Assembly (NCBI GenBank): GCA_030688735.1
Contig: JAUYJC010000630.1
Coordinates: 2,262-66,261 of the forward strand
Reading direction: 5' to 3'
DNA length: 64,000 nucleotides
Source of the DNA: Deltaproteobacteria bacterium
Lineage (GTDB): Bacteria; Desulfobacterota; Binatia; UBA9968
Part shown: positions 132 to 62,148 of the stretch, piece by piece
How the letters are laid out: every line of letters starts with the position of its first letter
Position numbering within the stretch: the first letter of the stretch is position 1
Notes under the pieces: generated by a model
Seen by the model: only the letters and a program-made list of their open reading frames with translations
Databases searched by the model: none
Told to the model about the DNA's origin: nothing
Made by a program: the position numbers and the translations under genes

Positions 132-1877
132 CTATTCGGTAGTGCCTTCCAACAGGTATTTGGCCACCTTACGGACGAAGTTGCGACCATTTACTGTCTT
201 CAAGGGAGAGCCAGGGTCGAGTACGGCGACATCATTGAGGAAAACATCCGGCCCCTCTTCTTCGAGGAAGCGCATGATGTCGGCGGGAATCATGTTCCTG
301 GCTGATTCGGCAAACTCTGCGGGGGTGGTTTTGCCACCTTGCACTGCCGCTTCCATGAACCGGACCGCCAACTTGACCTCATCCGGCTCGGGGCGTCTTG
401 CCATTTTCTCCTGTGCCTGCTGAATCTCGATGACCTGCTCTCGGGTGAGATCGTGGACGAGCCCGTGCTCGTCGCGGACCTGAATTCGGCCATCGGGGGT
501 TTGGTAGGGCTGCCCCACGGGGGGCAATGCTGCCAACTGGGTCTGGGCCTGCGGCGCCGCCGCCAACTGCGCGGGTGCTGGTGGGCCGCCGATGATGCGC
601 TGGATGGCTTCTGGATTTTCCATGACCGTTTGCGCCAGAGATTCGTACCACTTGGGTCGCTCCTCCTCGTTGCCACCGAAGACGCCGTGGAGTTGTTGGT
701 ACACGCTCGTCATCTCGACGGCTTGATCGGCAACGGATTTGTCTTTTCGGGCTCGAAGCTCACCGACCTCAGCCTCGGTCTTGCCGAGATCGCGGTTGAG
801 CTTGTCGATCTCGGACTTGAGCCCATCAATTCGGGTCTCGTAGGCCAACTTGGTGGTTTCGAGCTGCCCTTGGTGGGAGCGTTGCAGGTTGTCGATCTCC
901 CGCAGGTGTGACTGTTCTAGGCGGTTGATCTCAGCGGCTCGCAGCACTTCCTCTCGCTTGAGGTCTTCGCGATGATTCTCGCGAAGCTGCCGGGTTTCGG
1001 AGTCGTGCTGAGCCCGAAGTGACTCGACACGCCCTGACTCCTGTCCCCACATGGACTTCATCAAGTCGGTGGAGCCATCGGGTTTGCTGCCTTGCTCGGC
1101 GATGTACTTGAGTAGTTGCGTGTCCTTCTCGGTGAGCTTGGTCTGCAACTGAGTCACCTGCGCCACGAGCGGATTCATCATCGTCTGAATCAGCGCGAGG
1201 GTTTCGCCATTGCTGCCGTTGCCATTGCGTCGACCCTCCTGTGCCATCTGTTGCGCGAAGTCAAACGCACGACTGCCAAGCCCGCCATCCTCTTCGCCCT
1301 TGGTCCGGGGACCACCAAGCATGACGCCATCCACAATGGGGTGCCCGGGGATCTTCACTGTGCGACTCTTGAAATAGACCATTCGACCTTGCTCGTCAGG
1401 TCGCATGACCTGAACGGAATACGTTCCGCCACCATTGGTGAGCTTGATATCGTCCTCAGTGAGCATTTCATCGTATTGATCGATGTATCCACCGATCTCA
1501 ACAATGTCCCCGTTTGCATCGCGAACCTTGTCGGGCTTGCGTCGCTCAAGCTTGACCTTGAAGTTGTCGTGAACTCCGAGGGAGTCGAGCCACGACTGCA
1601 AGGTCTGATCGCCACGCTCGATCATCTCCTTTTGACGACGGGTTGTGGTGCGCCTGGGAATGGGTGTGACAGTGGCGATTCCATCATCGTCTTCTTCGAT
1701 CTCTGGCATTTCTTCCTCTTCTTCCTCTTCGGTTTCTTCGACTTCAACCACCTCGATAGGCGAGTCGGTCTTACTCGTCTTCCGCCGACGCTTCTTCTTC
1801 TTTAGTGGCATTTTCTTCTCTAGTTTTTCCAGCTCCGTCGTCGTCATTGTCGGAATCGTCGGCATCTTCGTCCTCAT
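132..1877 (-). CDS. coiled-coil protein with basic/poly-Glu N-terminus (possible scaffold or internal virion protein)
   Basis: 581-aa ORF. KKKKRRRK then a poly-Glu run, followed by a long Q/E/R/L-rich heptad-like middle. Start ambiguous: 1877, 1865 (GAGGA upstream) or 1811. Confidence 0.6.
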   Translation of the reverse strand: MRTKMPTIPTMTTTELEKLEKKMPLKKKKRRRKTSKTDSPIEVVEVEETEEEEEEEMPEIEEDDDGIATVTPIPRRTTTRRQKEMIERGDQTLQSWLDSLGVHDNFKVKLERRKPDKVRDANGDIVEIGGYIDQYDEMLTEDDIKLTNGGGTYSVQVMRPDEQGRMVYFKSRTVKIPGHPIVDGVMLGGPRTKGEEDGGLGSRAFDFAQQMAQEGRRNGNGSNGETLALIQTMMNPLVAQVTQLQTKLTEKDTQLLKYIAEQGSKPDGSTDLMKSMWGQESGRVESLRAQHDSETRQLRENHREDLKREEVLRAAEINRLEQSHLREIDNLQRSHQGQLETTKLAYETRIDGLKSEIDKLNRDLGKTEAEVGELRARKDKSVADQAVEMTSVYQQLHGVFGGNEEERPKWYESLAQTVMENPEAIQRIIGGPPAPAQLAAAPQAQTQLAALPPVGQPYQTPDGRIQVRDEHGLVHDLTREQVIEIQQAQEKMARRPEPDEVKLAVRFMEAAVQGGKTTPAEFAESARNMIPADIMRFLEEEGPDVFLNDVAVLDPGSPLKTVNGRNFVRKVAKYLLEGTTE

Positions 1878-2262
1878 CTTCGAGGGTGATTTCCTCGATA
1901 AGTTGGGCTGCCATCACAGCAGCGCGTTCGTAGCTCTCTTTGGCTTGGGTGAGCTTCTTCGCAAGCAGCTCGTCATCAATCTTGATGTCTTCGACGATCA
2001 AGCAAAGCGCAGCGCCAAGCTCCAAAGCGCCGATGATGGTCTTCGCAGTGTCCTCGTGGATGAGTTCGCCACTATCCTCGATGAGATCGACGAGCATCTT
2101 CTCGTGCTCGTCGGCCTTGTCCGAGACGACTTCAATGAAGCCATCGAAGAGCGAGAGGATCTCATCATTGATGAGGGACCTCATCGTGTTGTCCAGCGGC
2201 ATCTTCGCCACTCGCTTCTTCAACAGCGTCACGTCCGCTCGGATTTGCTGAAACTCTTGCAT
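1771..2262 (-). CDS. acidic hypothetical protein
   Basis: 163-aa ORF with an Asp/Glu-rich C-terminal tail. It overlaps both neighbours, so the true start may be an internal ATG (2202 or 2184). Confidence 0.5.
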   Translation of the reverse strand: MQEFQQIRADVTLLKKRVAKMPLDNTMRSLINDEILSLFDGFIEVVSDKADEHEKMLVDLIEDSGELIHEDTAKTIIGALELGAALCLIVEDIKIDDELLAKKLTQAKESYERAAVMAAQLIEEITLEDEDEDADDSDNDDDGAGKTREENATKEEEASAEDE

Positions 2263-8330: not shown

Positions 8331-8647
8331 CCTGGCACCGCATCAATCCACTGGCCAAAGCTGAGCTTCCCGACATTGAGATCTGGCCCGATCTCCACGT
8401 TACAGTGAAATGTCGCAAATGCGGAATCCGCACGGGTCCCGAGGGCATGATCAACGATCCTGACAAGGGTGTCGTCTGCCCCAAGTGCGGGAAAAAGGCC
8501 AAAATGACCCAATGTAGCGCCGAGCAAGCGTTTTTCTATTGGTTCTGCGTGCCTGGGTGTACTCCGGTGTCCGATCCCTGCGGGCCCTATACAAGTGAGA
8601 CCGAAGCTCTTGATTCTGCAAGAGCTTTCGTTGCAGACTTAGATTGA
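8327..8647 (+). CDS. zinc-ribbon hypothetical protein
   Basis: 106-aa ORF with a GTGA-overlapped start; CRKCG...CPKCG motifs. Confidence 0.6.
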   Translation: MTWHRINPLAKAELPDIEIWPDLHVTVKCRKCGIRTGPEGMINDPDKGVVCPKCGKKAKMTQCSAEQAFFYWFCVPGCTPVSDPCGPYTSETEALDSARAFVADLD

Positions 8648-33536: not shown

Positions 33537-34092
33537 GAGCTACTACGATAGCGTTTGGCCTGAAAATGCGAGGACCGAAGGCAGATATGTACTAGTTCGG
33601 AGTCATTATACTCCACTACTCTTTGAGTGGATCGCGCAAACAAAAGGCGATCTGCTCGGCGAGCCCGAGAAGATTTGGCTCTTCCTACTTGACGACCCGA
33701 CGTGGTTTCGTCGCCTCACGCCGGAATCGTGGCACAACCTCAATAGCCCTCAAGGGGGTATTCCTAAGAACGTGTGGGCAGGGGTAAAAATTGACAGTCC
33801 CGAGGACATCCAAAACATCCCGGAACTCCGACGCATCCGAGCCCGTCGACTTTTTCTGGAGTGCAACCTCGAAGAGAATGGATCAAATGAAGCACTATCC
33901 AAAGAGCTTAACGCCTGGCGGTGTAAGTCCTGCGGAATGCGCGGCGAAGAAAAACAGCGCGATTGCCCGAACATTCATCTCTGTGACCGTGACACGCTCT
34001 CGCCACAAATCGAGTGGATTGTGGGCAAGGCGGCACACACGATAGCTACTCCTTTGAGCATCATACTTTGGCCGGAGCGACCCAATGACTGA
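33529..34092 (+). CDS. hypothetical protein
   Basis: ATG 33529 inside listed ORF 33367..34092; product starts MTESYYDSVWPEN. Confidence 0.6.
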   Translation: MTESYYDSVWPENARTEGRYVLVRSHYTPLLFEWIAQTKGDLLGEPEKIWLFLLDDPTWFRRLTPESWHNLNSPQGGIPKNVWAGVKIDSPEDIQNIPELRRIRARRLFLECNLEENGSNEALSKELNAWRCKSCGMRGEEKQRDCPNIHLCDRDTLSPQIEWIVGKAAHTIATPLSIILWPERPND

Positions 34093-35725
34093 GACTGAGC
34101 GAGAAATCTGGTACGCCATTCCCACCTGCAACGTCCCACGGGCACAGGCCACGCTGAAGAAGTGGAAAGAGAAGGGCTACAAGACCATCGCACTATTGGA
34201 CGGCAAGGTCGAAGATCACGCAGCAGTCGGCGCCGACGTGGTGTTGTTTCGCGACAAGTACGAGGGCTATTACGTCTCTGCGCGGCTCATGGCGCAGAAG
34301 CTCAGAGAGAAGCTTGGCGACTACCCCGACATCATGGTCTGCGGCGGCGACGACATGGACCCCGATCCGAAACTCCACGCGCAAGCCATTGCGGCTCAGT
34401 GCTACGAGAAGTTCCCTGACGGCTACTTTGTCATGCAGCCCATCGGCGACGACCTGCAAGGCACTGACAAGATCTGCGGCTCGCCATGGTTCGGTAAGGA
34501 GTGGCTCAAGAGGTCCTACAACGGCAACGGCCCCTTCTGCGGGCAATACTTCCAATTCTACGGTGATGAAGAACTCAGGTACGTCGCCGACATACGCAAG
34601 GTGCTCTGGCAGCGACCTGATCTCGCGCAGCGTCATCACCACTGGCTTCGCCCCGGCATCAAGAAAGAGAAGTACCAGTCGGTGAACGAGGTGAAGTATT
34701 GGGAAAAGGACAAGGCCACGTTCGCCGGACGCCAGACAAAAGGCTTCCCCGGATCATATCGGCAGTGTACGTTCCCTGCCGGCGCTAAGGTTGTGGTGAC
34801 CGGCGCTGGTGGCTTTATTGGTCACCACCTATCAAATCGACTCGTCGCCGAAGGCGCCGATGTTTTCAGTATTGACCGCAAGCACCCCGAGTGGGGCGAT
34901 CACCCTTCGCGGGATTTCATGCTTGTCGATTTGCGTTGCATCGAAGATTTCCTCAGTGGTCAAGACTTTGTTTTCCATCTCGCTGCGGAAATGGGTGGTA
35001 TCGGCTACATCGAGAACAACAAGGGAGACATCGTATCGAGTTCAACTCGCATAGATCTGAACGTCCTTGATGCCTCCTATCGGAGCAAGGTCGGTCGATT
35101 CCTCTATACGTCCTCAGCGTGTGTCTATCCAGGCTACCGTCAGAACGATCTCAATAACCCCGGGCTCAGAGAGTCGGACGCCTACCCCGCCGACGCGGAA
35201 GACGGCTACGGCTGGCAGAAGCTCTACACCGAGCGCCTGTGTCGCCACTACCGCAAGGACTTCGGCCTCGATACTCGCATCGCGCGGCTGCACAACATCT
35301 TCGGTCCGCTGGGGACCTACGATGGCGGCCGAGAGAAGGCGCCGGCTGCCATGTGTCGTAAGATCGCCATGGCCAAGGACGGGGACCCTATCGAGGTCTG
35401 GGGCGATGGCAAACAGACACGATCCTACTGCTACGTCGACGATTGCGTTGAGGGTCTGATTCGCCTCATGCTCTTCGACTACAACAAGCCCATCAACATC
35501 GGCACCGATGAAATGGTGTCGGTCAACAAGCTCATCGAGCACGTCGAGGCCGTGTCCGGTAAAAAGGTCAAGCGGGTCTACGACCAGACCAAGCCTAAGG
35601 GCGTTCGTGGGCGCAACGCCAACCTTGATCTTGTCAAAGTTGTCCTCGACTGGTCGCCGACGCGCACCCTCAAAGAAGGGCTGGCAGAGACCTACCCTTG
35701 GATTGCAGAGCAGGTACAGAAGTGA
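34085..35725 (+). CDS. fusion protein: unknown N-terminal domain + GDP-mannose-3,5-epimerase-like SDR domain
   Basis: From ~aa 235: VVVTGAGGFIGHH (Rossmann), SSACVYP, YGWQKLYTE (YxxxK), REKAPAAMCRKIA, WGDGKQTRSYCYVDDCVEG. This closely resembles GME-type epimerases. Confidence 0.8.
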   Translation: MTETEREIWYAIPTCNVPRAQATLKKWKEKGYKTIALLDGKVEDHAAVGADVVLFRDKYEGYYVSARLMAQKLREKLGDYPDIMVCGGDDMDPDPKLHAQAIAAQCYEKFPDGYFVMQPIGDDLQGTDKICGSPWFGKEWLKRSYNGNGPFCGQYFQFYGDEELRYVADIRKVLWQRPDLAQRHHHWLRPGIKKEKYQSVNEVKYWEKDKATFAGRQTKGFPGSYRQCTFPAGAKVVVTGAGGFIGHHLSNRLVAEGADVFSIDRKHPEWGDHPSRDFMLVDLRCIEDFLSGQDFVFHLAAEMGGIGYIENNKGDIVSSSTRIDLNVLDASYRSKVGRFLYTSSACVYPGYRQNDLNNPGLRESDAYPADAEDGYGWQKLYTERLCRHYRKDFGLDTRIARLHNIFGPLGTYDGGREKAPAAMCRKIAMAKDGDPIEVWGDGKQTRSYCYVDDCVEGLIRLMLFDYNKPINIGTDEMVSVNKLIEHVEAVSGKKVKRVYDQTKPKGVRGRNANLDLVKVVLDWSPTRTLKEGLAETYPWIAEQVQK

Positions 35726-38099: not shown

Positions 38100-38395
38100 A
38101 GAAGATACGTGAGGTCTCCGATTACTTTGTTGGACACAAAGCTGTCATAGAAGAGGTCTGTGACGAGTGCGCCGGCACCGGGCACGTACACACCGGCTCC
38201 TTGGGCGGCGGCACGGAAGGAATAACCTGTTGCTGGGAATGCAACGGCTCCGGGCAGCTCGCTGAGCCTCGGCCTTACCACGCCATCCCCCACGGGGATC
38301 ACTGCCCGTCATCATGCGAGCACATTGATCCGCCAATTACCATGTACCAGTTTGCTAACCTCATCACTCGCGACGTGCCGCCGCGGCATGAGTGA
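38096..38395 (+). CDS. DnaJ-type CxxCxGxG zinc-finger protein
   Basis: CDECAGTG and CWECNGSG repeats. 99 aa, GTGA-overlapped start. Confidence 0.6.
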   Translation: MKKIREVSDYFVGHKAVIEEVCDECAGTGHVHTGSLGGGTEGITCCWECNGSGQLAEPRPYHAIPHGDHCPSSCEHIDPPITMYQFANLITRDVPPRHE

Positions 38396-38427
38396 CTCTG
38401 GTTGTGGATCAAAAAGAGGTTCAAGAA

Positions 38428-39096
38428 ATGACCCAACTCATTCTCGTCGTCGGCAACGGTCGTAGTGGCACCAACTTGCTCGGCAAGCTCATTGCCTCAC
38501 ACCCGGGTGTAGAAGGCTACATAGAGGAAGAGCCTATCTTTGGTCTTGTTACCAAAGCAGCCCTCTACAACGACGGGGACGCGCTCTACGCGGCGCGAGA
38601 GTGGTATGAGAGCAAACTCAAAGCCTGCACCAAGCCCTATTTGCTCGATAAGTCACACATGAATCTGTGGCTGGTCGAGAGGTGGCTGCGTGTGTTCCCG
38701 AACGTGAAAATCATTGGCATCCGTCGTGATGCGTACAACACGATCCTGAGTGCCCGTGAGCACATGGGAGTGCAGAGCCACTACCTGCGACTTGATCTCG
38801 TTGGCAAAGACTGTCGCGCCCTCGGGCTCAAAGCTAAAGACTGGTCACGATCACTCACAGCCAAACTCTTGCTGCGCTGGCAAGCACACGAGGATGAGTT
38901 TCGCCGGCTGTCGTGGATACCCACGATTGAGTACCGAAACCTTGTTCGTGATCCTGGTAACGCATTGGAGAAACTCGGGCTTGGCAATCTCCCAAAGGGT
39001 ATTGACTGCTCTATCATCAAACCCCCGACCAAGCGGCCGTTTGATAAAGCACTCATCGACGAGATCATCTTTTACGCTTCTCAGCATGAAGACTGA
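38428..39096 (+). CDS. sulfotransferase
   Basis: VVGNGRSGTNLLGKL (5'-PSB loop) and IGIRRDAYNTILS (3'-PB motif). ATG 38428 with AGAGG upstream, inside listed ORF 38392..39096. Confidence 0.7.
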   Translation: MTQLILVVGNGRSGTNLLGKLIASHPGVEGYIEEEPIFGLVTKAALYNDGDALYAAREWYESKLKACTKPYLLDKSHMNLWLVERWLRVFPNVKIIGIRRDAYNTILSAREHMGVQSHYLRLDLVGKDCRALGLKAKDWSRSLTAKLLLRWQAHEDEFRRLSWIPTIEYRNLVRDPGNALEKLGLGNLPKGIDCSIIKPPTKRPFDKALIDEIIFYASQHED

Positions 39097-39903: not shown

Positions 39904-40172
39904 ACATCCCAAACAAACGCGCTAGGTGGCGGTCCGGGTCCGGATCTAAGTCCTGGTCCTGGTCCCGAACCCAGACCCGGTCCGGGTCCCGGTCCGGGTC
40001 CTGGTCCAGGTCCTGGTCCGGGTCCGGATCTAAGTCCTGGTCCTGGTCCCGAACCCAGACCCGGTCCGGGTCCTGGTCCGGGTCCTGGTCCAGGTCCTGG
40101 TCCTGGTCCGGGTCCGGGTCCTGGTCCCGGTCCTGGTCCCGGTCCAGGTCCTGGTCCGGGTCTCAGTCCTAG
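39900..40172 (+). CDS. repeat protein 1: VNIPNKRARWR-(S-G/W/R)n, coding frame uncertain
   Basis: GTGA overlap with the upstream stop. Low-complexity Ser/Gly/Trp/Arg product. Confidence 0.35.
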   Translation: MNIPNKRARWRSGSGSKSWSWSRTQTRSGSRSGSWSRSWSGSGSKSWSWSRTQTRSGSWSGSWSRSWSWSGSGSWSRSWSRSRSWSGSQS

Positions 40173-40198
40173 TTCCAGTCCAAATCCAAGGTGTCGCC

Positions 40199-40411
40199 AT
40201 GAGTACCCCGAACAAACGCATTAGGTGGCGGTCCCGGTCCGGGTCTCAGTCCGGGTCCCGGTCCGGGTCCCGGTCCTGGTCCCGGTCCGGGGCCGGGGGC
40301 GGGGCCGGGTTCTGGTCCGGGTCCTGGTCCGGGTCCTGGTTCTGGTCCGGGTTCTGGTCCGGGTTCGGGTCTCAGTCCGGGCCCCGGTCTTTGAGGGTGT
40401 TGCTGCCATGA
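40199..40411 (+). CDS. repeat protein 2: MSTPNKRIRWR-(S-G/W/R)n, coding frame uncertain
   Basis: ATG start; the stop overlaps the next ATG (ATGA). Confidence 0.35.
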   Translation: MSTPNKRIRWRSRSGSQSGSRSGSRSWSRSGAGGGAGFWSGSWSGSWFWSGFWSGFGSQSGPRSLRVLLP

Positions 40412-40617
40412 GCACTCCCAACAAACGCGCTAAGTGGCGAACCCGGTCCGGGTCCGGGTCCTGGTCCTGGTCCCGGTCCGGGTCTCAGTCCGGGTCCCAG
40501 TCTCGGTCCTGGTCTCGGTCCTGGTCCCAGTCCTGGTCCGGGTCCGGGTTCTGGTCCCGGTCCCGGTCCCGGTCCGGGTACGGGTCCTGGTCTGAATCCA
40601 AGGTGTCGCTGCCGTGA
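40408..40617 (+). CDS. repeat protein 3: MSTPNKRAKWR-(S-G/W/R)n, coding frame uncertain
   Basis: ATGA-coupled start; the stop overlaps the next GTG. Confidence 0.35.
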   Translation: MSTPNKRAKWRTRSGSGSWSWSRSGSQSGSQSRSWSRSWSQSWSGSGFWSRSRSRSGYGSWSESKVSLP

Positions 40618-40820
40618 GTACCCCGAACAAACGCGCTAAGTGGCGGACCCGGTCCGGGTCCGGGTCCTGGTCCTGGTCCTGGTCCGGGTCTCAGTCCGGG
40701 TCCCGGTCCGGGTCCGGGTCCTGGTCCAGGTCCTGGTCCTGGTCCGGGTCCGGGTCCTGGTCCCGGTCCTGGTCCCGATCCTCCGGGTTTTCAGAGGTGT
40801 CGTGGTCATCACAGCACTAG
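40614..40820 (+). CDS. repeat protein 4: MSTPNKRAKWR-(S-G/W/R)n, coding frame uncertain
   Basis: GTGA-coupled start. Ends 22 nt before the TnpB-like gene. Confidence 0.35.
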   Translation: MSTPNKRAKWRTRSGSGSWSWSWSGSQSGSRSGSGSWSRSWSWSGSGSWSRSWSRSSGFSEVSWSSQH

Positions 40821-40842
40821 AAAGATTAGAAAGGAAAGACAA

Positions 40843-41665
40843 ATGAGCAAAATTCTAGTTTACAAATTCGGAGCCCGCTATCCATCCGCAGAGTCTCGCG
40901 CGCTGTTGCTCGCACAAATGCGGATGGGGCATGAGTATTACAACCACCTCGTCGAAATGGAAAACGCTCGACGTAAGGCGGCGCAACGCTCGTGCAGATC
41001 GTATTCGTAGCACCCGCGACGTGATGCGCAACGAGCTGCTTGAGTGGCTCGGCGCCGATGAGAGTGAGTCTTCAAATCTCGTGCGTGATCGGGCGGGACG
41101 ACTCGCCATTTTCCGCGGTTTGCTGCGCGTGGTAGGAATCGATACCGACCAGGCGACAATTGATCGGCTGCAAGAGCACGTCCACCGAGATCGGCATCTG
41201 GCTCAGTACGAGAGCGGCAACCGCCGGCGCGCCGAGTTGCACAGGCGCAATGAGTTCCGCAAATTTGTTCGCGTGCTACGCCGGCGCTATCTCTGCGTCA
41301 TGATCAAGACGGACGCGATCAAGGAGATGAAGGAAAAAGGTGATCTCCCACAACCCGCGCGGAAACAGGGACAGATTGCGGCTCCGGGCGAGATGTTGGC
41401 AGAGCTACGCTCTGTCTTCCTCGACGGCGGCGCAATCATCGTCGTCGAGGGTGAGTACACGTCACGGGATTGCGTGAAGTTGGAGTGCGGGCATCGCAAC
41501 GAGGGCTACGCGGGTCCTGTGCTGATTTGCGAGCAGTGTGGTGACACGAGGGATCGGGATGAGGTATCTGTGGAGAATATGATGCGGCTGCTGGCGAGGG
41601 GGGGAGTACAAAATCAAGACCGCTCGCAAACGGGTGGCCAGGTTCGCGAAACGACACAAGAGTAG
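40843..41665 (+). CDS. hypercompact TnpB/Cas12-like (RuvC + zinc-ribbon) protein split over two frames (40843..41010 and 40931..41665)
   Basis: N-terminus MSKILVYKFGARYPSAESRALLLAQMRMGHEYYNHLVE. VVGIDTD (RuvC-I-like). C-terminus IIVVEGEYTSRDCVKLECGH...CEQCGDTRDRDEVSVENM (TNB finger + RuvC-III). A frame change is needed near 40975-41010. The CRISPR array follows immediately. Confidence 0.65.
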
Positions 41666-41673
41666 CGAGAGCA

Positions 41674-42064
41674 GTGACAATGCCAGCTCGATGGCTTAGA
41701 GATCGAGACATGCCGTCGAGCTTCGCGCCATCCACGCTGAGGTCGTGACAATGCCAGCTCGATGGCTTAGAGATCGAGACAGCTGCAAGGTGTCGACCGC
41801 TTTCCCGCACCCCCTGTGACAATGCCAGCTCGATGGTTTAGAGATCGAGACCACTGGAACAATCGCCGCCTGAGCGCGAGGGAGCTTGTGACAATACCAG
41901 CTTGATGGTTTAGAGATCGAGACTCGTCGGTACCGTTCACCGCCTCTACCACGACAGGTGACAATGCCAGCTCGATGGCTTCGTGATCGAGACCGAGAAG
42001 TCTAGGGATCTCGGGGTGAAGCAAGGGGTAGTAATGCCAGCTCGATGGCTTCGTGCACTTCCGT
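41674..42064 (+). CRISPR. CRISPR array: five 36-bp repeats plus a degenerate sixth (a seventh remnant at 42071-42106)
   Basis: GTGACAATGCCAGCTCGATGGCTTAGAGATCGAGAC at 41674, 41745, 41816, 41888, 41958. Unique spacers of 35, 35, 36, 34 and 35 bp. Repeats decay away from the TnpB-like gene. Confidence 0.85.
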
Positions 42065-42086
42065 CAAAAGTAGTAATGTCAGCTTG

Positions 42087-42413
42087 ATGCTGGATTTAGT
42101 CGTGAACAAGACACCACCACTGTTCTGTCCTAAGTGCAAAACTAAAACCCGGCTCATCTCGACCGGCATCTGCTATCGCTGCAACTGGTGGGCGAAGGTC
42201 ATGGGCAAAAAGCCGCCAAAGCGAACCCGCCCGGCGCCCTTGCCACTGAAGCCGCGCAAGCGTAAGAACCCCCCGGGCAAGCCGGGTCGACCGCGCGGCA
42301 AGGTCCGCATCCCGGGGTTGATTCAGTGCGCGGGATGGGCGTGGTCGATAGGCCGGCGATGCTCACGGATGGCAGAGCTTGGTGGTGATTACTGTTGGGA
42401 GCACAAGAGATGA
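42087..42413 (+). CDS. zinc-ribbon protein with Pro/Lys/Arg-rich linker
   Basis: CPKCK...CYRC, then KKPPKRTRPAPLPLKPRKRKNPPGKPGRPRGK. Start uncertain (42045, 42087 or GTG 42102); all three lie inside degenerate repeats. Confidence 0.55.
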   Translation: MLDLVVNKTPPLFCPKCKTKTRLISTGICYRCNWWAKVMGKKPPKRTRPAPLPLKPRKRKNPPGKPGRPRGKVRIPGLIQCAGWAWSIGRRCSRMAELGGDYCWEHKR

Positions 42414-42697
42414 GCGTCACTGAAATCGTTCGAAGTTGGCTCACAGTGAATGGCTACACCGGATTCCACCAAGCAGAGTGTGGATGTTTGGTGATCTGGT
42501 CGGCGCAGCAGCAGGGTGAGCCTGGATACCAGGTGGACTGCACCTGCAAGGAGAAAAATATGGCTGGCAAGATAGAAGACCTGAAGGCACAGATAGAGGA
42601 CCTGGAAGAGCAACTGAAGGTAGTGACGGAGATCCGGCATCACGGCTGCGAGTGTAGTGATGATGACGTGTGCGCTGTGCGCAGGACGTGGATATGA
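42410..42697 (+). CDS. hypothetical protein with short coiled coil
   Basis: ATGA-overlapped ATG at 42410; Cys-containing; KIEDLKAQIEDLEEQLK. Confidence 0.55.
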   Translation: MSVTEIVRSWLTVNGYTGFHQAECGCLVIWSAQQQGEPGYQVDCTCKEKNMAGKIEDLKAQIEDLEEQLKVVTEIRHHGCECSDDDVCAVRRTWI

Positions 42698-43128
42698 TCG
42701 ACCCCCCTCTTCGTGAACTCCTTAGAGCAGGCGCGAAGTGTGACCGAAGCGGTCCTCTTTGGCGCTCCTTCCTCGAATTCCACCACGACAACCCGTGGGT
42801 GTACAGGAGGATCAAGGAGATCTCCAATGACCTCTACACCTCCGGGTTTCGATACTACTCCACGAGAACGGTGATCAGCGTTCTGCGCTTCGAGTGGGAT
42901 CTGAGAACCGGAGGTCAAGAGGTCATCATCACCGGCAAACCACGCATGGTGAAGCTCAACAACAATCACAGCCCGTACTACGCGCGCATGATGATAGAAG
43001 AGGACCCGGGCAAGTGGACCGATTTTTTCGAGCTTCGCAGCGCCGAGGGTGACCCAGTTTGCTTTCCACCGGGGCTCGGCCCCAAAACACTGATCCAGAA
43101 ACTACGCGCGCAAATGAGCTTGTTATGA
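42694..43128 (+). CDS. hypothetical protein
   Basis: ATGA-overlapped ATG at 42694; 144 aa. Confidence 0.6.
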   Translation: MIDPPLRELLRAGAKCDRSGPLWRSFLEFHHDNPWVYRRIKEISNDLYTSGFRYYSTRTVISVLRFEWDLRTGGQEVIITGKPRMVKLNNNHSPYYARMMIEEDPGKWTDFFELRSAEGDPVCFPPGLGPKTLIQKLRAQMSLL

Positions 43129-45240: not shown

Positions 45241-45395
45241 AAGTCATCGAAGATGTTCGCGGCGAGACCATCAGCGTCGTCACAATTTCTAACACTATTC
45301 AGATCGGACTATACGATGAGTCTGTGGAGCTTGACGAAGACGGGGTTAACAACTTAATCACCGCGCTACAAACCGCGAAGGAAGAGCTAGAATGA
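45237..45395 (+). CDS. small hypothetical protein (52 aa)
   Basis: ATGA overlaps at both ends. Under 60 aa, so not in the ORF track. Confidence 0.45.
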   Translation: MKVIEDVRGETISVVTISNTIQIGLYDESVELDEDGVNNLITALQTAKEELE

Positions 45396-46516
45396 GAGTC
45401 AACTACCACTGCCATTTCGGCCAGCCCACCGGCTACGCCCGAGCTGCTCACGACAACATCATGGCGTTGCTCTCAGTCGGCGTGAGCGTGAAGATCTGGC
45501 CGTTCGATTCATATGCTTGCATCGACGGGCTTGAGTCACGCTACATGAAGTTGACCAACTACCTCGCCGCCGATGACGATGATCCCTTCAAAGATGAAGG
45601 CGTTCACGTCTATCACGAGACCCCGGGGAGGCTCAAAGAGCTGTTGGACATCGACGCGCTCCCCGGGCCAGCAGTCGCTTTCACGACTTGGGAGACTTCC
45701 CAGCTGCCAGAGGAGTTTGTCGACGCTCTTTTGTCGTTCGAGAGTGTCATCGTACCTTCGGTCTTTTGTCAACATGCCTTGTCGAAAAGCGGTGTGAAGT
45801 CTGAAGTGGTTCCGCACACCCTCGATTTCGACTTCTGGGAGCCCTCAGACAAGCCCAAGGCGTCGCCGTTCACCTTCTACACCATCGGCGCCTGGAACGA
45901 GCGCAAGAACGTCGGGGCGCTGCTCAAGGCGTACCTGGCCGCGTTCCGCCGGGACGATGAGGTCAAGCTCGTCATCCACTCGATCGATCCCGACATCTTC
46001 GAGACCAAACGCATCCTCAGCCAGAGCGGCATCCCGGAAGGTCAATTGCCGCGACTCTTGATCACAGATCACTTCCTCTCCGAAGCCGCACTTTTGTCTA
46101 TCCACCAGGAATCACACTGTTTCGTGTCGATGACCCGGTGCGAGGGGTGGGGGCTCGGCGCCTTCGAGGCGCTGGCCTGCGGCAACCCCGTGCTCATGCC
46201 GGGCTACGGCGGACAGTGGGACTTTCTGCCGACGCAGAGTCACAAGGTGCAGTACACGACGACGCCTTGTTTCCCTTCTGATCGCATCGTCATCCGCGAT
46301 GACGTGGTCACGGGCATCCGCAACGTACCCAAGGGCGTCGCGTGCGATCAAGACTGGGCCGAGCCCAGCATCCACGACATGAAAGTGCTCATGCGGCGAG
46401 TGTTCACTAGCCGGGGAGAGGATATTCTTCCTATCCGAAAGAAGCTCGGCTCTCTCTACAACTACAACAAAGTCGGTGAGCGGCTCGCTTCGGTCCTCGC
46501 CTACACGGGGAAATAG
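45392..46516 (+). CDS. GT-B glycosyltransferase (GT1/GT4-like)
   Basis: RCEGWGLGAFEALACGNPVLMPGYGG contains the E-x7-E motif. 374 aa. Confidence 0.8.
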   Translation: MRVNYHCHFGQPTGYARAAHDNIMALLSVGVSVKIWPFDSYACIDGLESRYMKLTNYLAADDDDPFKDEGVHVYHETPGRLKELLDIDALPGPAVAFTTWETSQLPEEFVDALLSFESVIVPSVFCQHALSKSGVKSEVVPHTLDFDFWEPSDKPKASPFTFYTIGAWNERKNVGALLKAYLAAFRRDDEVKLVIHSIDPDIFETKRILSQSGIPEGQLPRLLITDHFLSEAALLSIHQESHCFVSMTRCEGWGLGAFEALACGNPVLMPGYGGQWDFLPTQSHKVQYTTTPCFPSDRIVIRDDVVTGIRNVPKGVACDQDWAEPSIHDMKVLMRRVFTSRGEDILPIRKKLGSLYNYNKVGERLASVLAYTGK

Positions 46517-60831: not shown

Positions 60832-62148
60832 TTAGCTATTCTTGAAGATCCCTCGGTAGAGACCCTGGTCGAAACCCGGGCCAATCGAAGGAACCGCGCC
60901 GGTCCACGACCGCGACGGTATGGGGGCGAGCGAACCTCGCGCCGGGACAGGCGAGAGCATGGAGCTGCGACTCACGCCGCCGAGCCGGCGGTTGGCAAAG
61001 TCACCCATCTCCGACTCAAACGCGCCCATTTCCGACTCGAACATCCCCAGATCAGCTTCGATCTGTCCCAAGGTGATGTCGTCATCAATAGGGTTTTCGC
61101 CGACCTCGAAGTAGCCGTCCTGTGCCACGTAGTCGTCGACGGTCACGTAACCCTCAGTGGGTTGAGTGGTGACTAGCGGTGTCAAAACGGTGCCGCTTTC
61201 GAGACCGAGGACTTCCTTCACGCTTTGCGGCGCGAAGGCGTTGACCACAACGTCGATGAAGTTGAGACCGGCGCCGAGCATCAAAGAGCTGCGATGCTTG
61301 ACGAGAGCCTTGACCTTCTTCGTACCGAAGTGGGTGACCACGATGGCCCCGAGGGACAGAACCGGCTTGGCCAGATCAATCCCGCCGACCTGGAGCTTGT
61401 TCAGACCGGGGACGTACTTCGCGCCAAGATGCGCGAGCGCCTTCGACCCATAGAAGCCGGCCGCGATCGGCAGTGCCTTCATGATGGCATCTTTGATGCC
61501 TGCGGGGTTCGAGCGCATCTTGAACCTCGCTGCGACGGCGCTAGCAAGCCCCTTGCGTTTCTTGTTGACGATGGTCTGACGAGCCCGGTGCATCGACTCC
61601 CCGGTAGAAGCGCGAGGGTTCCGTCGAAGCCGACGCCGACGAACGACGCGCTTGGCAACGGACCGCCGACGCCGACGCCGCTTGGGGGCTGGATTCCGAC
61701 GAGCAACCCGCCGACGCCGACGAACGACGCGCTTGGCAGCAACCCGCCGACGCCGACGCCGCTTGGGGGCCGGATTCTTGCGAGCGCGCTTGCGGGCGCC
61801 CTTTTTGGCAGCGAGGCTGCGCTTGCGCTTGTTGGCGGCGCGAGTGCGCGCGGCTTTCTTGGCGGCAGAACTTCGACTTCGCTTGGACGGGTTGCGCTTC
61901 ACGCGGCGCCTGGTGGTGGTCTTGCGGCGCACAGGGCGGCGACGCTTGACCGTTCGTTTCTTGGCCATGGTCTTCTTTCTCCTTGTTGCGCTCGCGATGC
62001 GGCGCGGGTTGGTTTTGCGCTTCGGGCGCTTTTTTGCCGTCTTGAATTTGCGGGCCACGGCCCGCTTGAGTGCAGGCCCGACCTTGCGGCGAACTACCTT
62101 TTTGGTCTTCCGACGCTTACCGCGCGGGTTGACGTACATGATCGGCAC
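60832..62148 (-). CDS. Arg/Lys-rich DNA-binding-like protein with hydrophobic/acidic C-terminal domain
   Basis: 438 aa. About 200 aa of K/R-rich sequence, including the tandem NPAPKRRRRRR-x-AKRVVRRRR repeats. Confidence 0.75.
   Translation of the reverse strand: MPIMYVNPRGKRRKTKKVVRRKVGPALKRAVARKFKTAKKRPKRKTNPRRIASATRRKKTMAKKRTVKRRRPVRRKTTTRRRVKRNPSKRSRSSAAKKAARTRAANKRKRSLAAKKGARKRARKNPAPKRRRRRRVAAKRVVRRRRRVARRNPAPKRRRRRRSVAKRVVRRRRLRRNPRASTGESMHRARQTIVNKKRKGLASAVAARFKMRSNPAGIKDAIMKALPIAAGFYGSKALAHLGAKYVPGLNKLQVGGIDLAKPVLSLGAIVVTHFGTKKVKALVKHRSSLMLGAGLNFIDVVVNAFAPQSVKEVLGLESGTVLTPLVTTQPTEGYVTVDDYVAQDGYFEVGENPIDDDITLGQIEADLGMFESEMGAFESEMGDFANRRLGGVSRSSMLSPVPARGSLAPIPSRSWTGAVPSIGPGFDQGLYRGIFKNS

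Follow-up and report, generated by a model that had tools for sequence, protein, structure and literature searches.

A probably inactivated type V-M-like CRISPR locus on a phage, with a structurally intact array

The stretch of DNA analysed here, called the window throughout, comprises 64,000 nucleotides (nt) of contig JAUYJC010000630.1 (positions 2,262 to 66,261) from the Deltaproteobacteria bacterium assembly GCA_030688735.1. At its centre of interest lies a gene split between two reading frames, 40843-41010 (55 amino acids (aa), frame 1) and 40931-41665 (244 aa, frame 2), followed by a CRISPR array whose first repeat starts 8 nt past the TAG stop codon (41663-41665) of the 244-aa open reading frame (ORF), just as an original prediction made from the sequence had noted. 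That prediction joined the two frames into a hypercompact TnpB/Cas12-like product of about 273 aa that would use the adjacent array. The window also carries phage-type genes for a DNA polymerase, a helicase, an exonuclease, an endolysin/M15 peptidase, an integrase, HNH endonucleases and methyltransferases, and these replication, lysis and integration genes agree with the view that the locus sits on a phage-like element. The gene is a homologue of Cas12m, and the locus is best read, with a probability of roughly 0.8, as a phage-borne type V-M-like system whose effector was recently destroyed and whose array is orphaned but structurally intact.

The kinship of the gene with Cas12m is seen both in its sequence and in its fold. 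The N-terminal and C-terminal motifs quoted in the original prediction are present in the translation, and the joined translation reaches the Pfam family PF07282 (Cas12f1-like_TNB) exactly at the gathering cut-off, which upholds the placement of a TnpB/Cas12-superfamily gene beside the array. In a phmmer search of the PDB, the top match of the joined product is Cas12m (23vw_A, E 1.2e-8): residues 5-98 align with Cas12m 20-111 and residues 109-256 with Cas12m 422-576, leaving about 300 Cas12m residues without a counterpart. Matches to TnpB are far weaker (E 0.07 in the PDB; E 0.095 for NF040570). The intact relative P0002 (479 aa) again finds Cas12m best in the PDB (E 3.2e-13), and the four best Foldseek matches of its AlphaFold model (pLDDT 83) are cryo-electron microscopy structures of Cas12m2 or Cas12m (8hhl, 8hhm, 8hio and 8pm4; E 1e-19 to 3e-16), with TnpB and Cas12f ranking after them. 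A model of the window fragment also places Cas12m2/Cas12m first, but it covers about a quarter of the target, at the C-terminal end (TMt 0.25-0.30). Profile and fold searches therefore recover the proposed RuvC/TNB similarity and put Cas12m ahead of TnpB.

Intact relatives reveal what the window gene once contained. P0002 was the only non-self relative in an indexed search; the window matches it at the N-terminus (VRVYKYGAR...YYNQLVKAENARRQA) and over the C-terminal ~210 residues, two parts that ~226 residues separate. A HMMER search of 1.8 billion protein representatives with P0002 as the query returned a tight clade of 470-530 aa at 42-56% identity and, beyond it, about 2000 proteins, mostly of 550-640 aa among the 150 listed. 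P0002 and 13 clade members (472-527 aa) align end to end, and 15 of the proteins found were aligned with the window product (alignment A2). Four short family members (P0016, P0017, P0019 and P0053) were considered as recurrent mini-forms and rejected, as they resemble contig-end pieces of full-length genes. An intact effector gene leads directly into an array from the same repeat family in contigs L001, L025/L028, L026, L027 and L074, and in many more distant loci. In several relatives the ORF closes with the translated first repeat, ...NAS(P/A)AA, meaning that gene and array abut or overlap.

Compared with these relatives, the window gene owes its small size to an out-of-frame internal deletion and a second frameshift. 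Searching the whole window by tblastn with family members yields three abutting matches in three frames (40852-40980, 40985-41602 and 41601-41660). The first corresponds to residues 1-39 of P0002 and 3-40 of P0011; it falls in the 55-aa ORF, whose ATG is preceded by a Shine-Dalgarno-like AGGAAAG and whose remnant comprises WED strand 1 and the first REC helix, MSKILVYKFGAR...YYNHLVEMENARRKAAQ. At the junction one match ends at 40980-40983 and the next begins at 40985-40991 in another frame, while about 226 codons of the intact relatives (P0002 residues 40-265) are missing. Alignment A2 is empty for the window in columns ~47-407: the window covers family residues 1 to ~46 and then ~266 to the end, re-entering the family at RADRIRS, a conserved motif. 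By tblastn, the missing segment has no copy anywhere in the 64-kb window. On the P0002 model, the missing residues make up the REC helices (57-107) and the whole beta-rich WED region with the first RuvC strands (123-258), including RuvC strands 1-3 and the RuvC-I aspartate (IAVDV). The near-invariant RuvC-I motif, AVDVGWR, falls within the absent segment. The VVGIDTD block that had been assigned to RuvC-I lies instead in a variable linker before the conserved W..RDRHLWQYE helix.

What remains beyond the junction is the RuvC helical insertion, RuvC strand 4 with a lysine at the RuvC-II position (CVMIKTD), the CxxxxC...CxxC zinc ribbon (TNB) and RuvC-III (DRDEVSVENM). The replacement of the RuvC-II glutamate by lysine had been noticed in the original prediction; it holds for all 13 compact-clade members (V-K-D/N/A), and the glutamate is kept in the more distant P0020 and P0024 and in the Cas12m proteins of the PDB. 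As aligned, the predicted RuvC triad of the compact clade reads D-K-D, not D-E-D. Further downstream, a run of seven G residues marks the second frameshift. Past this run, frame 0 encodes TARKRVARFAKRHK...DNASSMA: first the basic tail that the family conserves, then the translated first repeat. The annotated frame encodes unrelated residues instead. The 273-aa product is not an ORF and requires frame corrections at ~40985 and at the G7 run. A model of the frame-corrected product, which measures 286 aa, is mostly helical and retains just two RuvC strands and the zinc ribbon.

Assembly or sequencing error was rejected as the cause of the frameshifts. Two Logan contigs (L002 and L003), from the separate sequencing runs SRR13727534 and SRR26726065, are 100% identical to window 40748-41703, and because these independent assemblies agree across both lesions, the lesions are real. 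The remnant keeps 47 of 53 clade-conserved positions, which falls within the 82-98% that intact members retain when each is left out in turn, and its coding segments contain no internal stops. This means that either the inactivation is recent or the fragment is still under some constraint.

Two readings would give the shortened gene a function of its own. A genuinely hypercompact (~273 aa) RNA-guided TnpB/Cas12-like factor using the adjacent array would account for the abutment of gene and array, for the retained TNB zinc ribbon, RuvC-III aspartate and other clade-conserved residues, and for the identical allele found in three samples. This reading is rejected by the family alignment, the three-frame tblastn matches and the models of P0002 and of the window product, and it must be regarded as strongly disfavoured. 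The product needs two frame changes and lacks RuvC strands 1-3, the entire WED and most of REC. In Cas12m complexes the WED and RuvC hold the pseudoknot of the CRISPR RNA (crRNA), and REC/WED read the protospacer-adjacent motif (PAM). PmCas12m loses much or all of its activity through engineered deletions in its WED, RuvC or TNB, and these are far smaller than the deletion in the window. Moreover, the search of 1.8 billion representatives returned no other protein with this architecture of N-terminal and C-terminal parts, its short matches looking like contig-end fragments. The small size that had been taken as a mark of hypercompactness is the outcome of a ~226-codon out-of-frame deletion and a frameshift in a family whose intact members measure 470-530 aa. 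For the discovery of genome-editing tools this is a negative yet helpful outcome: what looked like the "smallest Cas12", at 273 aa, is an artefact of a deletion in evolution and does not merit pursuit as an effector. The original prediction had also allowed for a binding-only factor with the logic of Cas12m or for a decaying remnant; the Cas12m family and the decayed state both proved correct.

Scarcely more credible is a truncated fragment co-opted for a guide-independent role, either as a dominant-negative or anti-CRISPR protein against rivals' Cas12m-like effectors or as a zinc-ribbon DNA-binding regulator. The 244-aa ORF is free of stops and keeps conserved residues, and its allele recurs in three samples. 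Its ATG at 40931, however, lacks a convincing ribosome-binding site, out-of-frame filler makes up its first ~18 residues, and it no longer has the conserved tail. Judging from the model, a piece with two strands of an RNase H fold would be unlikely to fold alone, and there are no diverged homologues for a test of selection.

The array, in contrast to the gene, has been preserved. Its five well-conserved 36-nt direct repeats (consensus GTGACAATGCCAGCTCGATGGCTTAGAGATCGAGAC) start where the original prediction had placed them and are followed by five unique spacers of 35, 35, 36, 34 and 34 nt, in order. The Tandem Repeats Finder (TRF) also detected the periodicity of 70-72 nt. Two degenerate copies do follow repeat 5, as had been proposed, but each begins 1 nt upstream of the coordinate first given (42029 and 42071). 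Apart from its decayed trailer, the array is a normal one of V-M type. The coordinates of the array and of the gene remnant are collected in Table 1.

Table 1. Positions of the effector gene remnant, its lesions and the CRISPR array in the window
Feature	Position	Strand	Description
ORF1, 55 aa	40843..41010	+	N-terminal remnant of the effector in the first ~46 codons, then 9 out-of-frame codons and TAG
Deletion junction with the first frameshift (from frame 1 into frame 2)	40981..40990	+	Abutting tblastn matches; alignment A2
C-terminal remnant, frame 2	40985..41602	+	Within ORF 40931-41665; PF07282, phmmer, tblastn, alignment, model and Foldseek
G7 homopolymer with the second frameshift (from frame 2 into frame 0)	41598..41604	+	Consistent with one extra G
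Ancestral frame of the basic C-terminal tail (frame 0)	41601..41699	+	Enters repeat 1 (…SSESSDNASSMA*), like relatives ending …NASPAA
CRISPR array core	41674..41993	+	Five structurally competent 36-nt repeats and spacers 1-4
Repeats 1-5	41674-41709, 41745-41780, 41816-41851, 41888-41923, 41958-41993	+	
Spacers 1-4	41710-41744, 41781-41815, 41852-41887, 41924-41957	+	
Spacer 1	41710..41744	+	Stems from a tail-fibre-type gene homologue in a different phage, which is high in GC
Array trailer	41994..42105	+	Spacer 5 (41994-42027) and two degenerate repeats, overlapping the start of the next ORF
Degenerate repeat 6	42028-42063	+	3' stem arm gone
Degenerate repeat 7	42070-42105	+	

The repeats share a predicted crRNA pseudoknot that is very well supported by covariation. 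When one repeat from each of 11 related phage arrays was aligned, positions 9-11 pair with 20-22 (stem I) and positions 14-19 with 29-34 (stem II). All 99 cells of these pairs across the 11 arrays hold standard pairs, and eight of the nine pairs show compensatory changes on both sides; sliding the partners as a control lowers pairing to 25-37%. Counted from the 3' end of the repeat, the stems join -28..-26 with -17..-15 and -23..-18 with -8..-3, so overlapping pairs occupy the same positions as those described for the PmCas12m crRNA (-28..-26 with -17..-15 and -23..-20 with -6..-3). Both stems are retained in repeats 1-5 of the window. Repeat 3 has one G-U pair, and repeat 4 carries a compensated A-U pair (G9A and C22T) along with one wobble. 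Repeat 6, by comparison, has lost the 3' stem arm. An Rfam search returned sub-threshold noise only, in a GGTCC repeat, and a simple seed-based search of 40500-42800 found no anti-repeat, an inverted repeat match that would hint at a trans-activating CRISPR RNA (tracrRNA). The covariation-backed pseudoknot offers a handle for locating such arrays.

These features place the locus close to type V-M, whose loci have been described as array-only, devoid of adaptation genes and marked by catalytic sites that are progressively inactivated (PMC10691335). Type V-M Cas12m proteins (MmCas12m, GoCas12m, PmCas12m and Cas12m2; PDB 8hhl, 8pm4 and 23vw) are the best match of the window gene in sequence and fold. 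The 36-nt repeat, the two-stem pseudoknot, the adjacent array, a RuvC triad that is degenerate in sequence and the location on a mobile element are shared as well. So is the absence of cas1, cas2 and cas4 that the original prediction had reported: no Cas1, Cas2, Cas4 or other Cas protein was found in the neighbouring ORFs with Pfam or among the 59 ORFs of the window with PADLOC. The bilobed WED-REC / RuvC-TNB fold is predicted in the model of the intact relative P0002. The window copy differs in being a pseudogene, with the middle ~226 residues missing, two frameshifts and no uninterrupted ORF.

Read as a recently inactivated system, the locus would descend from one in which a single effector gene of 470-530 aa ran directly into a short array, as in L001, L025-L028 and L074, an arrangement that makes co-transcription of the pre-crRNA with the gene most likely. 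Each 36-nt repeat would form the two-stem pseudoknot, and the WED and RuvC would grip it as they do in solved Cas12m complexes. Characterised Cas12m proteins process their own single crRNAs and bind DNA in a PAM-dependent manner without cleavage, thereby silencing genes (PMC11013384, PMC10442227). By analogy, the ancestral effector probably processed single crRNAs itself, and the guide would have directed PAM-dependent DNA binding without cleavage to silence essential genes of competing elements. An out-of-frame deletion of ~0.7 kb would then have removed the REC helices, all of the WED barrel, and RuvC strands 1-3 together with the RuvC-I aspartate, and a +1 shift at the G7 run would have removed the conserved basic tail. 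With these two lesions the gene can yield only a 55-aa peptide. The internal ATG, if used, could give a 244-aa fragment devoid of the crRNA- and PAM-binding parts. To judge from its sequence, the locus should be unable to work in cis, and its orphan array may be on the way to loss or usable only with an effector in trans.

Several observations weigh against this account. The searches found no closely related phage that carries the gene intact, so the deletion is deduced from relatives of 38-47% identity. No decay is seen in the coding segments that remain, and the repeats can still fold, which equally fits continued selection on the fragment or the array. The allele that bears the lesions occurs in three samples and is thus not strongly deleterious to the phage. 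Finally, only one of the five spacers has an identifiable source.

That source was found when the spacers were searched, as the original prediction had proposed; the search succeeded for spacer 1. This spacer matches viral contig L052 over its first 20 nt, and over the full length 29 of 35 positions agree. Read in frame DLSVDGAKLDGI of a long ORF, which matches phrog_863 in the PHROG category 'tail', each of the six mismatches is synonymous. The L052 protospacer has ...CCTCG as its 5' flank. For the five codons that lie outside the searched 20-mer, identical amino acids are very unlikely to arise by chance. Since every mismatch is synonymous and no homologue of the L052 tail gene was found in the window, spacer 1 derives from a homologue in another phage of higher GC content. 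This origin fits competition between elements. A second match to spacer 1, in contig L053, was dismissed because it lies in an unrelated 159-aa ORF and resembles a 20-mer agreeing by chance (25/35). IMG/VR viral contigs contain no exact match to the first 20 nt of spacers 2-4, and blastn of the array region 41660-42110, which includes spacer 5, gave no significant match in reference phages or plasmids. There is no self-targeting in the window, where the best matches have 11-15 mismatches and the best of them (window 15109) is not homologous, and no cross-targeting among the related arrays and loci compared.

The preserved array raises the question of use in trans, whereby its crRNAs would be loaded by a compatible co-resident Cas12m-like effector on a phage, prophage or plasmid and so keep out competitors, or would act as RNA decoys (RNA anti-CRISPRs) that sequester the effector of a rival. 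The complete covarying pseudoknot kept in all five repeats, including the compensated pair in repeat 4, speaks for such use, as does the targeting of another phage's tail gene by spacer 1. The exact stem II of the window (CTCGAT/ATCGAG) recurs in the L025, L028 and L074 arrays, which means that a compatible effector exists in nature. Arrays without an effector do persist, as contig L022 has a same-family array and no effector gene, and viral mini-arrays and RNA anti-CRISPRs are established phenomena (PMC11656645). Set against these points, no array with this handle was found in 185,579 species-representative genomes searched for exact pattern matches; the nine matches to the handle pattern there are single chance matches inside coding genes. 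Neither tblastn nor PADLOC found a second effector in the window. The intactness of the array may merely reflect a recent deletion. The gene is broken, and no promoter-like site was found in a promoter/terminator scan that was itself uninformative. Use in trans is an unlikely explanation, though the strongest of the alternatives considered. A narrower version, which is if anything a little harder to credit, has a phage of the compact D-K-D Cas12m clade shedding its effector while keeping a foldable array still under selection. The effectors of co-infecting relatives would either load its crRNAs or be decoyed by them. If true, it would amount to parasitism at the level of RNA, or to sabotage of the CRISPR system of a rival phage, and would provide a snapshot of the origin of orphan arrays.

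The orphan array of L022 (IMGVR_UViG_3300037424_000687, 1500-1900, minus strand; repeat CTAACAATGCCAGGACAACGGCTTATGAGTTGTCAC) consists of four good repeats and a decayed trailer on a phage contig of ~40% GC that has no Cas12m-like gene. The ORF upstream of it encodes an unrelated 135-aa protein; an M15 peptidase lies near the array in both L022 and the window, in a different gene order. Together, the intact (L001/L025), broken (window) and absent (L022) states document stages of effector loss with the array kept on phages, and these stages bear on the origin of viral orphan arrays. Like the viral orphan mini-arrays already described (PMC11656645), the window array has no effector, and at least one of its spacers probably targets another phage. 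Classical mini-arrays, however, hold one or two spacers and repeats identical to the host CRISPR, whereas the window array holds five spacers. Mini-arrays borrow the host system; the repeats in the window belong to the phage's own broken system, and no host array with this repeat was found by exact pattern in the species-representative genomes.

Apart from the broken copy, the compact clade (P0002-P0015; L001, L025-L028 and L074) was seen only on viral or metagenomic contigs, and no compact-clade effector was found in species-representative bacterial genomes with the search patterns used. Its members are ~50-130 aa shorter than characterised Cas12m proteins (~577-610 aa), and their D-K-D triad, with VVKD as the RuvC-II motif, differs from the D-E-D, H-D-D and N-D-D triads of the latter. 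The clade, which lies outside the window, is shorter than any characterised Cas12m, may be undescribed and may merit testing as a small DNA binder. In metagenomes, the window-type repeat was found only in L074, a member of the L025 lineage with an intact effector; the exact window repeat had no match in IMG/VR, and JGI metagenomes held no close relative of the window gene.

A scan of viral contigs identified at least 27 with a Cas12m-type locus. Such systems are therefore not rare on phages, although a 2026 preprint reports MvCas12m (610 aa) of myxophage MV-1 as the first phage Cas12m (bioRxiv 10.64898/2026.09.14.751636). MvCas12m resembles the window locus in being a phage-borne Cas12m gene with a short array and no adaptation genes. 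It has no tracrRNA, and its spacers mostly lack matches. It is intact and has a D-E-D triad, whereas the window gene is broken and belongs to the shorter D-K-D clade. TnpB and TldR share the RuvC-TNB core of the superfamily, and TldR, Cas12m and the clade of the window gene all lack the canonical catalytic triad. Where TnpB and TldR use a ~150-nt omega RNA guide, the 3' flank of the window gene is a repeat-spacer array with unique spacers. Nor is the IS200/605-type setting of TnpB/OMEGA systems seen, as no transposase domain was found in the adjacent ORFs, although transposon ends were not searched for.

Related arrays show further variation. In L025/L028 (8400-8900), the array repeat recurs at 8403, 8517, 8621 and 8848, past a ~330-nt ORF downstream of the main array, which suggests a split or secondary array. 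An unusual array lies downstream of a distant Cas12m-like gene (26% identity) in L031 (2700-3600) and L032 (7750-8650; IMGVR_UViG_3300024260_000887 / 3300024243_000005). Its ~30-nt units recur every ~46-50 nt with spacers of just ~16-25 nt, about the length of the mature Cas12m guide. Nearly every unit has a different stem sequence, yet pairing is kept, making the stems hypervariable but compensated.

The phage itself is distant from those on record, the nearest deposited phage being only 27% identical in its DNA polymerase. Genes for sugar and sulfate modification flank the locus: a nucleotide-sugar epimerase-like gene (34085-35725) and a sulfotransferase (38392-39096) on one side, and on the other a GT4 glycosyltransferase (45392-46516) that also matches the 'GT4-conflict' family. 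A type II DNA methyltransferase, two HNH endonucleases and an integrase lie elsewhere in the window.

Immediately upstream of the effector remnant, window 39905-40842 is built of four tandem units, each with a conserved ~47-nt block (…CCAAGGTGTCGCTGCC[A/G]TGAGTACCCCGAACAAACGCGCTAAGTGGCGG) followed by ~15-35 copies of the hexamer GGTCCN. GGWCC sites number 74 in 40001-42000, where other 2-kb stretches of the window have 1-8, and all six frames are open over long stretches of the GGTCCN region. One plus-strand frame contains four small ORFs of the form MSTPNKRAKWR(SG/SW/SR)n; ORF3 and ORF4 of this series share a GTGA stop-start overlap, and the stop of ORF2 (40409-40411) lies just upstream of the ORF3 ATG. 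The Gly-Pro frame (GGT CCN) has the variable base at the wobble position but no start codon. None of the related loci compared has a counterpart of these units. A further tandem repeat, of 81 nt in 1.8 copies with 92% matches, lies at window 61629-61777, in or beside ORFs on both strands.

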